From a virus (Duplodnaviria > Caudoviricetes): a DNA stretch of 64,000 nt. Below are positions 9,703-57,038 of the stretch, one piece after another. The stretch lies in the IMG/VR virus record IMGVR_UViG_3300020050_009209; one strand, given 5' to 3'. The position numbers and the translations under genes were made by a program. The notes beneath the pieces were generated by a model that did no database searches, was not told the DNA's origin, and was given only the letters and a program-made list of their open reading frames with translations. The stretch's first letter is position 1. Each line of letters opens with the position of its first letter.

Positions 9703-10473
9703 ATGAGCTACGACTACGATCGACGGGTGGCAAAAAAGGGCTTTGACCCAGCCGAGTATGACCTTGACGGCCTCCTGAAAGGAGAGTCTGTCACGTTGTA
9801 TCATGGTACAACACGATCCTTTAAGGTGTTCAACCTAGACAAAAGTCGAACCGACCTGGTCAATCAATACTATGGAAGTGGTGTCTTCTTGACGCCCTCC
9901 AAGTTGGTCGCTGAGAAGTACGCGAACGCAAATCGTAACATAGGGTTCGACCCTGAGATCATCGATGACCTCAAGAGAGCCAACCCAAAGGCCGGAGCCT
10001 TCATGCAGAAGCTCTATGACCTAGGGGATGACGCCTGGGAGGAGATTACTCCCGAAGCCCTTGGCGTAGCCCCAGAGGCCCTCTGGGGGGCTGCTCAGAG
10101 TCTTGTTGGGGACGTAGACCCAAATACGATTGCGGACGTCACTCGGTTCATCCTAGGCTCAAAGCTGAAGTCCTCCTTGGGGGATGACGACTCGCTTAGC
10201 CTCTTTAGCCAGAGCACTGGGATGCCAGGGTACATGTACGATAACTTGGACGAGCTAGGAATCGACTCGGCAAACTATAGGCCAAAAGTCTACAAGGTGG
10301 GAGTGAAGGTCGACAAGACCCTGGTTACTCCAAGCAAGTCCCTAGCTAAGTCGGCCAAGTCGAAGGGGTATGACGCTGTCATCTACCACGGGACGGACCT
10401 TGTTGGAGGTGTTCCAGAGGTGGCGGTCTTCAACCCAAAAAATGTTCGAGTCCTAGGGATGGAGCTTGTCTAG
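9703..10473 (+). CDS. ADP-ribosyltransferase-like protein (ART-PolyVal type)
   Basis: LYHGT..SFKVF, YGSGVFLT..K.VAEKYA, KGYDAVI, EVAVFNP motifs. Confidence 0.75.
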   Translation: MSYDYDRRVAKKGFDPAEYDLDGLLKGESVTLYHGTTRSFKVFNLDKSRTDLVNQYYGSGVFLTPSKLVAEKYANANRNIGFDPEIIDDLKRANPKAGAFMQKLYDLGDDAWEEITPEALGVAPEALWGAAQSLVGDVDPNTIADVTRFILGSKLKSSLGDDDSLSLFSQSTGMPGYMYDNLDELGIDSANYRPKVYKVGVKVDKTLVTPSKSLAKSAKSKGYDAVIYHGTDLVGGVPEVAVFNPKNVRVLGMELV

Positions 10474-18408: not shown

Positions 18409-18861
18409 ATGACGATGACGAAGGATGAGCTGCTTGCGGGTATCGAGAAGAAGGTTGCCGACCTGGCCGTGATTGCGGCCACGAAGGCTCGGGTGGAGGG
18501 GCAGGAGAAGGCCCTCATTGCTGAGCTGCTTGCGGCTCACGGAAAGGGACCCCACATGGTGGGGGGTAAGCCCAAGTTCATCTTCACCAGCAAGACAGGG
18601 ACCGTGTACATCTCGGACCCTCGCGGTACCGCGAAGGGCGTCAAGCGAGGCCCCCGTAAGGGCAAGTCGGTTCCCCCGGCGGCTGCTGCCGAGGTTACCG
18701 CTCCGGTTACCTCCCCTGAGGAGGAGGCTCCTGAGGAGACTGAGGAGGAGGCTCCTGAGTCGGGGGGCTTCACGGCTGAGCAGCTGGCGGACAAGCCGGA
18801 GGATGCCTTTGAGGGCTCGGAGGAGGATGAGGACCCTCTCGCTGGACTGGACCTCGACTGA
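18409..18861 (+). CDS. hypothetical protein with basic core and acidic tail
   Basis: Promoter plus AAGGAG RBS; strongly biased codons; hairpin downstream. Confidence 0.85.
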   Translation: MTMTKDELLAGIEKKVADLAVIAATKARVEGQEKALIAELLAAHGKGPHMVGGKPKFIFTSKTGTVYISDPRGTAKGVKRGPRKGKSVPPAAAAEVTAPVTSPEEEAPEETEEEAPESGGFTAEQLADKPEDAFEGSEEDEDPLAGLDLD

Positions 18862-18903
18862 GATGATGGCTGGGTAGGAGAGCTGTAACGCTCTCCTACC
18901 TTC

Positions 18904-19010
18904 CTTAGAGGGTAGGAGACTGAGCACACTGCATGGTGACCTAGGAGAGCTAGGTACGGCTTGTTGTGTGGCCTGTGAAACACGGTGTGCTCATTCTCCT
19001 GCCCTCTAAG
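18904..19010 (+). ncRNA. structured RNA motif copy A (three-way junction on a long stem)
   Basis: Covaries with 19344-19455; conserved GCATGGTG and TGAAACAC. Confidence 0.8.
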
Positions 19011-19029
19011 ACACGACTAATCAACACCT

Positions 19030-19110
19030 GCCGAATCGCGAGGCCGCAAGGCCGTAAGGGCGACCCTCAGATGGCCAAGAGGGGACCAGGTTCAAGCCCT
19101 GGATTCGGCG
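19030..19110 (+). ncRNA. atypical tRNA-like RNA
   Basis: Acceptor GCCGAAT/ATTCGGC, T-arm CCAGG-TTCAAGC-CCTGG; non-canonical D and anticodon arms. Confidence 0.7.
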
Positions 19111-19123
19111 CCTCAGGAGCAAA

Positions 19124-19342
19124 ATGCTGTATCTGCTGGAACGTAAGACTAAGGTGATGTACGACCAAACTACGGCTATGGTCATACGCGCAAAAAGCTA
19201 CAAAGACGCTAGAGCAGAGGCTGCATTACAAGCGACGGATGAAGGCCCCTCTGTGTGGCTGGACCCCCACCTCTCTACTTGCCTTAAAATAGCAACAGCA
19301 GGTGTACGTCAGTGTATTCTCGGCTCCTTTAGAGCTGGGTAA
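19124..19342 (+). CDS. hypothetical protein
   Basis: AGGAG RBS; ends ILGSFRAG. Confidence 0.8.
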   Translation: MLYLLERKTKVMYDQTTAMVIRAKSYKDARAEAALQATDEGPSVWLDPHLSTCLKIATAGVRQCILGSFRAG

Positions 19343-19343
19343 C

Positions 19344-19455
19344 CCTCAGGGGTAAAAGACTGAGCCTATTGCATGGTGTCCTGGGAGACCCAGGGACGGC
19401 GTAAGTATTCTCCGCTCATGAAACACAATAGGCTCGTTCTTTTGCCCCTCTGAGG
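19344..19455 (+). ncRNA. structured RNA motif copy B
   Basis: Covaries with 18904-19010. Confidence 0.8.
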
Positions 19456-19690
19456 CCCCAATGCTCTGCGGTTACTGCCTAGGTTGCTCTTTCTGCTCCG
19501 AACGTGAGGAGACCCTCTCTGAGAAGCGAGAGCGTACCCGTAGGGAGGATACAGCCCTTCGAGCACAAGGCCTCCCTACCTTCAAAGTGAAGATGAGGGA
19601 GTTCTTCAGGATAAGTCCAGAACGCCCCTCAACGTAAGGTACTGTATGGGAGCTAAGAGCTTCCATCCTCATCTAACTACTGAGTAACCC

Positions 19691-22198: not shown

Positions 22199-22592
22199 AT
22201 TGGGTAAGTGCTGACACCTCGGAAAGACGGGGAAATTTCTTAACTCCTACTGGCGAGACACGTTAAGTGTCGGGACACGCGTGGCTTGGAATCGTTCCAG
22301 TCACGGAACCAACGTAGGAGCTGTAGTCAACTTAGCAAGGCAGTCCATTCTCCGGAATAAATCTCCGGACGCGTCTGCCCCAAGTAGGGTGGCGAAGGGT
22401 AAAGCCGAGAGGCGAGCAAAACCCATGCCCCGAATTTGCTGCGGGGCGCTTTTCTTACTTTGAGAGTTGAAATGCACATCCGTGACTGGGTTGTCGTAAC
22501 CTGAGGGCCTCATCCTTCCTCTAGCCTCGGCAATTCGGAGCACACCCCCAGGCCTGATGAACCTGGAAGGTTCGGTTCAAACCCGAAGTGTA
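22199..22592 (+). ncRNA. cluster of structured non-coding RNAs ending in a tRNA-like module
   Basis: Leader hairpin 22211-22232; stems CTCCTAC/GTAGGAG (22244-22320) and TCAACT/AGTTGA (22327-22470); T-arm TTCGG-TTCAAAC-CCGAA (22571-22587). Confidence 0.65.
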
Positions 22593-22685
22593 AGGGGACG
22601 CCAACGCCCACGTCATGTGTTAGGGTCACGAGTGTGCTTTTCAACTTTCAATAGATCTAGAAGCCAATCAACGCACGAGAAACAT

Positions 22686-23234
22686 ATGAAACTCATTGGG
22701 TGGAAGAAATCCGTAACGACAGAGCAGCGACGTCGTATTGTGGTGGAGGTCATCACGCGCTCCCCCGTGAATGGGTACGACGGTGCCACAGTGACGCATG
22801 AGGATCTTACGCAGGAAGACTGGGAGAAGGTGATGGCGGAAGTCTCATCCGAGAACACATCGCTGTCAGAGGAAGTGAGTGCGTGGAAAAAAAGTTGGGA
22901 CAAGGTACGCCAAGAGCTGCGGGACGCCAACAACACGTCCCAGCACCTGGCAGCAAGCATTCTGAAAATACACCAGGAGATCGACCCAGTCACTGTTGAC
23001 AACTTGTGGGAGGGCTCTGGTAGGGTAGACCGCATCGTGAGCCTTATACGGAAAATGCGGAAGTTCCAGTTCCCAACCATAGCCAGAGAGGACCTGGACA
23101 GCATCACTGACAAGGTGTACTCCACGGAATTCGACACTCCTACTCTGCCATCAAAATCCATAAAGAATGTGGTAGTAAACATCGTTGCGATCGTTCTCGA
23201 CCGAGCACACCCCCAAGGACTGGAGAGTAAGTGA
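22686..23234 (+). CDS. hypothetical coiled-coil protein
   Basis: Start moved to ATG 22686 because the upstream part overlaps ncRNA. Confidence 0.7.
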   Translation: MKLIGWKKSVTTEQRRRIVVEVITRSPVNGYDGATVTHEDLTQEDWEKVMAEVSSENTSLSEEVSAWKKSWDKVRQELRDANNTSQHLAASILKIHQEIDPVTVDNLWEGSGRVDRIVSLIRKMRKFQFPTIAREDLDSITDKVYSTEFDTPTLPSKSIKNVVVNIVAIVLDRAHPQGLESK

Positions 23235-23255
23235 GCCTGGGATCGAACGGACATG

Positions 23256-23382
23256 CCCTTTTCTTCCTAGGTCTGGAAGCCAAGCGGTCTAGTTCAACGA
23301 GACTGATCCTCTCTGTGAGCTAGGACGTGGGGTCAACGCACGGGAAAACCTAGCCCTGCTTCCAGACCTAGGAAGAAAAGGG
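23256..23382. repeat. perfect 25-bp inverted repeat enclosing 77 nt
   Basis: cccttttcttcctaggtctggaagc ... gcttccagacctaggaagaaaaggg. Confidence 0.9.
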
Positions 23383-23418
23383 TTAAGCCTAGACCCCTCA
23401 ATCACGTAGGTCTTTACA

Positions 23419-55877: not shown

Positions 55878-57038
55878 CTAAAAATCTCGCATGTGAGCCA
55901 GATCGATACATAGGCTGTCTATTCTGAGCAAGTCTGGCTTCTTAGGAAGCTTCGACACCTTAGAAAGCTCGGTTAGCTCCACGTCTTGCTTCGCTGCCCA
56001 TTCAACAAGCTCATAGTAATTCCAAGCTCCGGCTCTAATGCGTAGCAAGTCCTCAGCATCTGGACGTCTCACGATAACCTTACCCTCAGTGAGGATCTCA
56101 CGGCACATCCGTAGGAGCCGCACTAGGTGCATGGCATGTTTCGTGTCGTACCCAAACTGCTCCTCTAGCTTCGCACGATCTGGATTGCGATTCTTCTTCC
56201 AATCCTGAAATTGCTGCCACTCTCGCAGTTTACTCGTGTAGCGTCGCTCCAAGTCGAGCAGCTCAATGAAGTTCGTGGAGAACCCCAGAGAGGTCGCTGC
56301 TGCGGTCCAGGTCTTCTCCTCGATGTCTTTCCAGGACCACTTGGTGATCTCTAGCAGCCTACGGTAGAACTCATCCTTGATGGATTGCCGGTTGGCTGGT
56401 CCAAGCTCCTCTAGCTCATGCCAATTCCACTCGTCCATACGTTTATGAATTGTAGAGGAGGCAGCTGCAAGCTGATCGGCCGGGATAAGAGTATGCTCCG
56501 GTAGGTTAAACTCTGCCCGTGTTGGAGGTGCTACAGGTGGGGTCTTAATCCACCTGTAGTGAGTGTTGATTCTCTTGAGCTGCTGAGTCGCATACCCACT
56601 GAACGTGTGCTTCGCCCGCTGAGATAGAAACAACTCGCGACTTCCCAGGAGAGTTGTCCCCCGTGGGGATACGACCAGGTGATCACTTTCGTCCGTGTAG
56701 AGGATCTCAAGGACGTTTGGGTTACACTCGGCCGCAAGTTTCATGAACTTGCGGAGTTCGAAGATCGTCAAGTCAGGCTCGGACTGAGTGACTTGCTCTA
56801 TTGTGCTCAGGAACCCTAAGTAGTATTCACGCGGAGCGATCATAACTCCACGCAAGTCAAGATCGCTTGTAGGGAGGTTCGTCCCATAGGCGTGACTACC
56901 GTGACGAGTCAGATAGATTGTCCGACTCGGTACCCACGGTAAGTTGCCGGAATACACTGGCTTCCAATCAAAGAGAAGCGTACTCTTGACTGAGATCAAG
57001 TCACTCCTTGGTGTACCCATGGAACCACCCCTTTCCAC
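55878..57038 (-). CDS. RlaP-like / DNA pol beta-superfamily nucleotidyltransferase
   Basis: HGSHAYG...SDLDLRG, NPNVLE, GYA..QL, GYDTKHAMHLVRL; start uncertain. Confidence 0.9.
   Translation of the reverse strand: MERGGSMGTPRSDLISVKSTLLFDWKPVYSGNLPWVPSRTIYLTRHGSHAYGTNLPTSDLDLRGVMIAPREYYLGFLSTIEQVTQSEPDLTIFELRKFMKLAAECNPNVLEILYTDESDHLVVSPRGTTLLGSRELFLSQRAKHTFSGYATQQLKRINTHYRWIKTPPVAPPTRAEFNLPEHTLIPADQLAAASSTIHKRMDEWNWHELEELGPANRQSIKDEFYRRLLEITKWSWKDIEEKTWTAAATSLGFSTNFIELLDLERRYTSKLREWQQFQDWKKNRNPDRAKLEEQFGYDTKHAMHLVRLLRMCREILTEGKVIVRRPDAEDLLRIRAGAWNYYELVEWAAKQDVELTELSKVSKLPKKPDLLRIDSLCIDLAHMRDF

Follow-up and report, generated by a model that had tools for sequence, protein, structure and literature searches.

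The window, i.e. the whole 64-kb stretch of phage DNA that was analysed, contains a + strand operon of small phage genes whose elements are tightly packed: a gene of 150 aa is followed by a short hairpin, by copy A of a structured RNA motif, 19 nt of spacer, a tRNA-like RNA, a Shine-Dalgarno sequence, a 72-aa gene, copy B of the motif, and a 58-aa gene. All three genes are entries of the ORF list. The 150-aa ORF (18409..18861, +) has an acidic C-terminus, matched no Pfam or PHROG family, and carries copy A in its 3' region; between its stop codon (18859-18861) and the copy lies one short hairpin. This hairpin of 11-12 bp (18866..18899, +) starts directly past the stop codon, as is evident from the sequence and from a fold of positions 18855-19470. 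Because GGGUAGGAGA is repeated in its 3' arm and in the outer stem of copy A, alternative pairing is possible: joining of the hairpin with the 5' arm of copy A might create attenuator-like folds.

The tRNA-like RNA (19030..19113, +) was recognized in the sequence by a 7-bp acceptor stem and a canonical T arm. At the D position it has a GGCC-GCAA-GGCC hairpin, and its "anticodon" loop comprises 10 nt including GGCCAA. We rejected it as a genuine tRNA: ARAGORN and the Rfam tRNA and tmRNA models were silent, and canonical features are confined to its acceptor and T arms. Its fold, considered alone, is not significant (z -1.5). Probably, this RNA is a processing signal for RNase P/Z. The 72-aa ORF between the copies (19124..19342, +) possesses its own Shine-Dalgarno sequence and gave weak PHROG matches (phrog_5444 and phrog_10752, E about 7e-5); its stop codon (19340-19342) is located one base ahead of the outer stem of copy B. 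On the other side of copy B, the GAGG Shine-Dalgarno sequence (19452..19455, +) of the 58-aa ORF (19461..19637, +; no PHROG family) is paired within the outer stem, according to sequence and fold. No promoter or terminator signal above background was found in the region. Close relatives of the phage were detected neither by blastn against GenBank phages nor in three protein-seeded IMG/VR scans; the sole distant protein match was to Vibrio phage D479. The phage of the window also encodes an RlaP-type nucleotidyltransferase, i.e. a protein of an RNA-repair pathway (55878-57038, -; Pfam 6.8e-24, phrog_388 5.5e-61). Another of its proteins contains an ART-PolyVal ADP-ribosyltransferase domain (9703-10473, +; 1.7e-9).

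Inspection of the sequence located copy A (18904..19010) and copy B (19344..19455) on the + strand exactly where the preliminary description had placed them. Their common layout is P1, GCAUGGUG, the 6-bp hairpin P2 with a GAGAN loop, an AC linker, the variable hairpin P3, UGAAACAC, and P1'. In copy A, an outer stem of 16 bp including one G-U pair (18904-18919 with 18995-19010, +) and a C/U mismatch (C18920/U18994, +) enclose a P1 of 10 bp (18921-18930 with 18984-18993, +). The three-way-junction core (18931..18983, +) is composed of GCAUGGUG (18931-18938, +), P2 (18939-18955, +; ACCUAG/GAGAG/CUAGGU, loop GAGAG), the AC linker (18956-18957, +), P3 (18958-18973, +), and UGAAACAC (18976-18983, +). 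Copy B is built likewise on the + strand: the outer stem (19344-19359 with 19437-19455, +) is followed by a mismatch (19360/19437, +), which is C/U as in copy A, by a P1 of 10 bp (19361-19370 with 19427-19436, +), and by a core (19371..19426, +) consisting of GCAUGGUG (19371-19378, +), P2 (19379-19395, +; UCCUGG/GAGAC/CCAGGG, loop GAGAC), the AC linker (19396-19397, +), P3 (19398-19416, +), and UGAAACAC (19419-19426, +). Thus, the junction strands J1/2 and J3/1 are exact in both copies.

Both cores match the combined core pattern exactly, and these are its two matches in the 64-kb window; none was obtained in 100 shuffles. A covariance model built from copies A and B found no third copy in the 64 kb. 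The fold of copy A has an energy of -62.4 kcal/mol (z -8.5 versus shuffled sequences), that of copy B -56.2 kcal/mol (z -6.9), and for both copies the + strand folds more stably than the - strand. The stems of A and B differ by compensatory changes, as had been noticed before. Not borne out was the earlier characterization of P2 as T-loop-like, because its loop is a 5-nt GAGAN. The outer stem of about 16 bp, described initially as shared by the copies, does exist in both and lengthens P1 to ~27 bp with one mismatch, but it is private to this phage: among family members the 16-bp extension is unique, and P1 typically comprises 9-11 bp.

The three longest inverted repeats of the 64 kb, namely copy A (I2), copy B (I3) and a stem at 23255 (I1), all belong to one + strand operon. 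The third structure (23255..23383, +) is a perfect 26-bp stem with a branched interior of 77 nt, which is devoid of the family core. It folds with -74 kcal/mol (z -8.4), and Rfam gives only a spurious sub-threshold match. As a side observation, this stem directly follows the ORF 22557-23234 and may be another processed structured RNA of the phage. The existence of a third long stem suggests that the phage uses stems of ~26-27 bp as general processing sites of the RNase III type, two of which would be topped by the motif. An RNase III site requires double-stranded RNA that is nearly perfect over about two turns (at least 20 bp), and copies A and B offer 27 bp with one mismatch. The 27-bp stems are thus candidate sites for cleavage by RNase III in this phage. 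One might go further and regard A and B as merely two paralogous hairpins of the RNase III type whose branched top is functionless; the third long stem, with its unrelated interior 4 kb away in the same operon, would fit such a view. It is, however, already contradicted by the homologues described below: conserved across hundreds of unrelated genomes, with compensatory changes, is the branched top and not the long stem. We therefore consider this explanation barely credible.

Copies A and B are exact members of a large, unannotated family of three-way-junction RNAs of ~55-80 nt. A scan of IMG/VR with the pattern GCATGGTG-N(30-60)-TGAAACAC gave at least 119 viral loci; in roughly 48 of the 119 matches listed, the flanks pair as P1 and the interior forms P2, AC and P3, with stem sequences that are entirely different. 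A half-pattern matched at least 120 viral loci. A stricter 22-base pattern, in which the core pattern is combined with the GAGA loop and the AC linker, matched at least 120 loci in a collection of species-representative genomes. Homologues of the family are thus abundant. Its principal carriers are phages and prophages; among the matches listed, the bacterial genomes belong to Acidobacteria, Verrucomicrobia, Actinomycetes, Komagataeibacter, Myxococcota, Planctomycetota, Gemmatimonadota, Nitrospira, and others. Copies are present in cultured bacteria, e.g. Terriglobus albidus DSM 26559, a Komagataeibacter strain and Geminisphaera colitermitum TAV2. Overall the distribution is patchy and comprises phages, at least eight bacterial phyla, and one narrow archaeal lineage. 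The latter is represented by two thaumarchaeal MAGs (G004 and G005; 1.7-1.9 Mb) with 19 and 16 copies. None of 120 sampled other genomes of their class contained a match; the archaeal presence is therefore narrow.

Most loci harbor a single copy. Tandem pairs arranged back to back, in which one copy is degenerate (e.g. GUAUGUGUG ... AUGAAACAA) and the other canonical, recur at L273:1490-1680 (-) of Terriglobus albidus and at the loci L183, L167 and L139. This bears on the proposal that the motif forms a new RNA class which releases the RNA lying between two copies. As far as computation goes, the new class stands; the release is not a trait of the family, in which single copies prevail and pairs are often back to back. 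As an aside, six MAG contigs (L125, L127, L132, L135, L180 and L208) terminate inside the motif or a few nt from it, which suggests that assemblies break at a multi-copy repeat in those genomes.

Alignment A2, which contains 49 members (copy A was aligned with 47 homologues; copy B is included), and the model R2 were derived from the family. R2 assigns 68.4 bits to copy A, which is among its training sequences, and 74.2 bits to copy B. The consensus reads P1 (9-11 bp), GCAUGGUG, P2 (GAGAN loop, nearly always 6 bp, with G-C closing pairs), AC, P3, (CA)UGAAACAC, and P1', where the length of P3 varies from a few to more than 40 nt. In A2 the cores are invariant and the stems vary freely. RNAalifold recovers P1, P2 and P3 from this alignment; double compensatory changes occur at 17 of the 18 pairs, and 8 of the 9 pairs of P1 covary. 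The fraction of paired cells is 93.6%, compared with 56% after shuffling and 36-46% for slid registers. The covariation score is 0.95 versus 0.22 for shuffled alignments, and none of 500 shuffles reached 0.95. G-U pairs are common and far outnumber A-C pairs, which are rare; the element therefore acts as an RNA on the given strand. These numbers substantiate the view of the preliminary description that A and B represent a covarying RNA encoded on the + strand. The same preponderance of G-U pairs, together with the central position of the conserved part, led us to reject a DNA-level element such as an attC-like or recombination site. In summary, the family is an autonomous RNA, which works as RNA on the strand of the genes.

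The junction contributes ~18 near-invariant nucleotides. If the opposite junction strand is fixed, 46 of 57 cases keep GCAUGGUG, whose position 2 varies most, and 52 of about 75 keep UGAAACAC. In a subclass, J3/1 ends with GAAACAAA; insertions after the U are tolerated. The variants of J1/2 and J3/1 are too few for their covariation to show how the two strands face each other. A pseudoknot was not detected in the family.

The motif is absent from Rfam 15 and was previously unannotated. No relevant Rfam 15 match resulted for the window at gathering thresholds, for the region at E-values up to 10, for five other members at E-values up to 1, for the conserved verrucomicrobial block (see below), or for 145 kb of viral loci. 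Obtained were only tRNAs, a tmRNA-like match at L013, and miRNA/VA matches, which are spurious because they are due to long stems. In the literature covered, we found no description of the motif, even by means of sequence strings; blastn of a typical member against GenBank phages gave no match, the query being too short for this comparison. Three observations would speak against a new class, namely an Rfam match, a lack of homologues, and a lack of covariation; each was looked for and none was made.

Several known RNAs were considered individually. For the twister-sister ribozyme (RF02681), to which the layout had been likened at first sight, no model match was obtained with the region at E-values up to 10 or with the five other members at E-values up to 1. 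A hammerhead was rejected: CUGAUGA is absent, only GAAA is present, the linker between P2 and P3 is AC, and Rfam reports no match. We also searched for loop A of the hairpin ribozyme (RF00173), i.e. an N/GUC site opposite AGAA, and rejected it as well: all of P2 is paired, and in P3 we see nothing beyond an ordinary hairpin of variable sequence and length. The RF00173 model itself matched neither the region nor the other members at E-values up to 10. The junction recalls what we take to be loop B of this ribozyme in sTRSV, with GAAACA running into a helix and G-Y-A-U-R-K-U-R on the returning strand; the positions that presumably correspond to C25 and A38 are kept, and the topology would be alike if P1 is equated with what we assume to be helix 4. 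Because a loop-A domain and a model match are missing, this resemblance may serve as a lead and does not establish membership. Finally, the defining feature of a k-junction is a tandem of sheared G.A/A.G pairs, for which the non-bulged strand supplies GA on the 5' side of the third helix (PMC10573300). A k-turn or k-junction was rejected, as the strand 5' of P2 ends with GGUG and not with GA.

The genomic context of the motif was analysed as well. For 94 of the 121 viral instances, the closest ORF on the upstream side has the same orientation as the motif; its stop codon precedes the core by a median of 16.5 nt, i.e. it is found just ahead of P1, and the next start codon follows at a median of 57 nt past the core. 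These position statistics are approximate because ORF calling is noisy in GC-rich DNA. The upstream genes are diverse, with major head protein, head protease and endolysin recurring. Among 139 downstream ORFs scanned, no recurrent family had more than four members, and within 3 kb of the motif no protein family co-occurs beyond what is due to lineage synteny. An intrinsic terminator following the motif was rejected: such signals were observed downstream in 2 of 162 cases and upstream in 3 of 162.

These data bear on the possibility that the motif is a ligand-sensing aptamer, i.e. a riboswitch which controls the downstream gene. The conserved junction nucleotides could form a pocket, tandem arrangements exist, and the stem of copy B sequesters the Shine-Dalgarno sequence of the next gene. 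However, the downstream genes lack a common function, and the absence of a recurring gene class argues against a classical riboswitch; moreover, the element keeps a closer spacing to the stop codon upstream than to the start codon downstream, it precedes tRNAs and convergent genes, and its P1, with 9-11 bp in general and 27 bp here, has a length and stability incompatible with switching. Due to the missing gene association, the very stable P1 and the kind of downstream neighbors, we judge a riboswitch to be very unlikely.

At three loci (L001, L028 and L083) a tRNA starts 3-7 nt past P1. Downstream of the motif, L013 contains a terminator and a tmRNA-like tRNA-like domain. The tRNA-like RNA 50 nt past this motif copy has a G3.U70 pair and an enlarged loop containing GGCCAA; the tRNA-like RNAs of the window and of L013 thus share GGCCAA in a loop, yet they do not align. 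A different situation is encountered in ~20 species of Verrucomicrobia (Udaeobacter and relatives), where an intergenic block of ~300 nt is conserved and terminates at its 3' side with the motif (L138:2893-3205 and ~20 syntenic loci among L129-L228). The block is flanked by a divergent gene and by a convergent tadA-like deaminase gene, with an acetyl-CoA synthetase further on, and its conservation ends directly past P1'. Indels of 1-2 nt occur in the P3 loop; coding is therefore excluded in the Verrucomicrobia, and the block is probably a stand-alone non-coding RNA.

Alternatively, the motif might be bound by a protein or RNP, or it might be a stable small RNA which RNase P or RNase III releases from the operon transcript and which acts in trans, e.g. 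as a decoy or sponge during infection. P2, with its fixed length, invariant GAGAN loop and G-C closing pairs, resembles recognition hairpins; a tRNA following the motif would provide a precise 3' end via RNase P; the long stems of the window would release a discrete structured RNA; and in Verrucomicrobia the motif belongs to a conserved non-coding locus that stands alone and converges with the gene next to it. On the other hand, the lack of a protein family co-occurring within 3 kb across the loci weakens this explanation, any partner would need to be available in archaea as well as in phages of many phyla, and the k-turn/k-junction signature is absent, there being no GA on the non-bulged strand (compared with PMC10573300). 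A role of this kind appears unlikely to us.

In the Thaumarchaeota (L124, L243-L269), the copies are mostly situated 80-160 nt 3' of tandem paralogous genes for PQQ beta-propellers, which encode a C-terminal membrane anchor. As the upstream genes are PQQ propellers, a TnpB/omega-RNA-like reading of the archaeal copies was rejected. In the archaeal variant J3/1 is extended to CGAGUCAUGAAACAC and P3 is sometimes minimal. At L243, a degenerate copy and an oligo-T tract precede the full copy.

In conclusion, a conserved autonomous RNA fold is located at the 3' boundary of upstream RNA segments. We infer that it is a cis-acting module which marks and processes the end of a transcript segment, and to this reading, which includes a phage-specific processing of the stems, we assign a probability of about 0.4. 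The element would act behind an upstream stop codon, as the 3'-terminal part of a non-coding RNA, or in the form of a tRNA leader removed by RNase P. The compact and conserved junction fold would define and protect the 3' boundary of the upstream RNA segment, either by resistance to 3' exonucleases or by self-cleavage. In the phage studied here, each copy is mounted on an additional 16-bp stem, and the resulting total of ~27 bp would be long enough for the RNase III of the host. Stems and the RNase P signal of the tRNA-like RNA would then cut the operon transcript into pieces, one comprising the upstream gene with copy A, another the tRNA-like RNA, and a further one the gene of 72 aa with copy B. 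Opening or cutting the stem of copy B would, in addition, free the Shine-Dalgarno sequence of the 58-aa gene. Two findings argue against a transcript-end module: the thaumarchaeal motif is not beside a stop codon, and one full copy is preceded by an oligo-T tract. A plain hairpin already slows many exonucleases; the invariant junction thus suggests a more specific role, i.e. catalysis or the binding of a ligand or protein.

The broad, patchy and host-independent distribution and the lack of a linked protein favor a self-contained activity. A candidate would be a new class of small self-cleaving ribozymes, whose active site is formed by GCAUGGUG, AC, UGAAACAC and the P2 loop of fixed length, and which requires no host factors. 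With 55-80 nt, a multi-stem junction of ~18 near-invariant nucleotides and freely covarying stems, the motif has an adequate size and conservation profile, and the junction resembles what is presumably loop B of the hairpin ribozyme. The spread over phages, at least eight bacterial phyla and a narrow archaeal lineage, the missing link to a protein family, and the multi-copy and tandem occurrence agree with this idea, as does the intercistronic, tRNA-adjacent placement, which is also reported for other phage ribozymes, among them the theta ribozymes (PMC10879173). The Rfam ribozyme models do not match, however, and neither a loop-A-like partner domain nor a CUGAUGA core exists. The products would stay annealed through P1, which comprises 9-11 bp in general and 27 bp here. 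Among motifs of similar profile assayed by others, moreover, most showed no cleavage; in one study, this applied to 10 of 10 candidates that were not hammerheads (PMC10085705). The long P1 and this poor record of cleavage are the reasons why we rate a ribozyme as rather unlikely. Somewhat wider is the tentative proposal, which we hold to be possible at odds clearly below even, of a new catalytic or exonuclease-proof RNA class spread by phages across bacterial phyla into Thaumarchaeota. It would be either a self-cleaving ribozyme, possibly sharing half of its active site with the hairpin ribozyme, or the first dedicated fold resistant to 3'-5' exoribonucleases.

To our knowledge, few structured RNA classes are common to bacteria, archaea and their viruses, and each new class of this kind opened new biochemistry, as exemplified by ribozymes, riboswitches and guide RNAs. 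Being short, with ~18 near-invariant junction nucleotides, clear covariation and hundreds of natural variants, the family is suited to experiments on cleavage, probing and structure. In phage operons, the element delimits neighboring genes, especially downstream of capsid genes and ahead of tRNAs; this placement may explain how phages set the levels of neighboring products without host-specific factors. The motif could also serve as a portable insulator or processing part. Owing to its absence from Rfam 15, genome annotation currently misses it.

A comparison with known systems reveals partial similarities. Orphan Rfam motifs such as DUF3268 k-junction RNA, Drum and skipping-rope are also widespread, covary, and are often found in the neighborhood of phage genes or tRNAs; none of them matches the family, for which the k-junction signature does not apply. 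The self-cleaving ribozymes of phages (hammerhead, twister, twister-sister and HDV-like theta) have a similar size, a conservation centred on the junction, and a patchy distribution. Yet the family shares no core sequence with them: CUGAUGA and the twister pseudoknots are missing, and there is no Rfam match. The hairpin ribozyme possesses a loop A with the cleavage domain and a helix 3, whereas the family lacks both and has a three-way junction instead. Moreover, the known hairpin ribozymes belong to circular RNAs from metatranscriptomes and not to DNA phages (PMC10085705). With the xrRNAs of flaviviruses, the family has in common a compact three-way junction, invariant junction nucleotides and the location at a transcript boundary. 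The xrRNAs stop the 5'-3' exonuclease Xrn1 and require a pseudoknot ring, whereas the family showed no sign of a pseudoknot and would have to block degradation in the 3'-5' direction; the analogy therefore concerns function alone. The RNase III hairpins of T7-type early operons are similar to the copies of the window alone, with respect to the ~27-bp stems with one internal mismatch. Unlike RNase III sites, the family conserves the junction, and P1 elsewhere comprises only 9-11 bp. In agreement with the T7-type hairpins, however, the stems of the window are placed between small co-directional genes, and one of them covers a ribosome-binding site.
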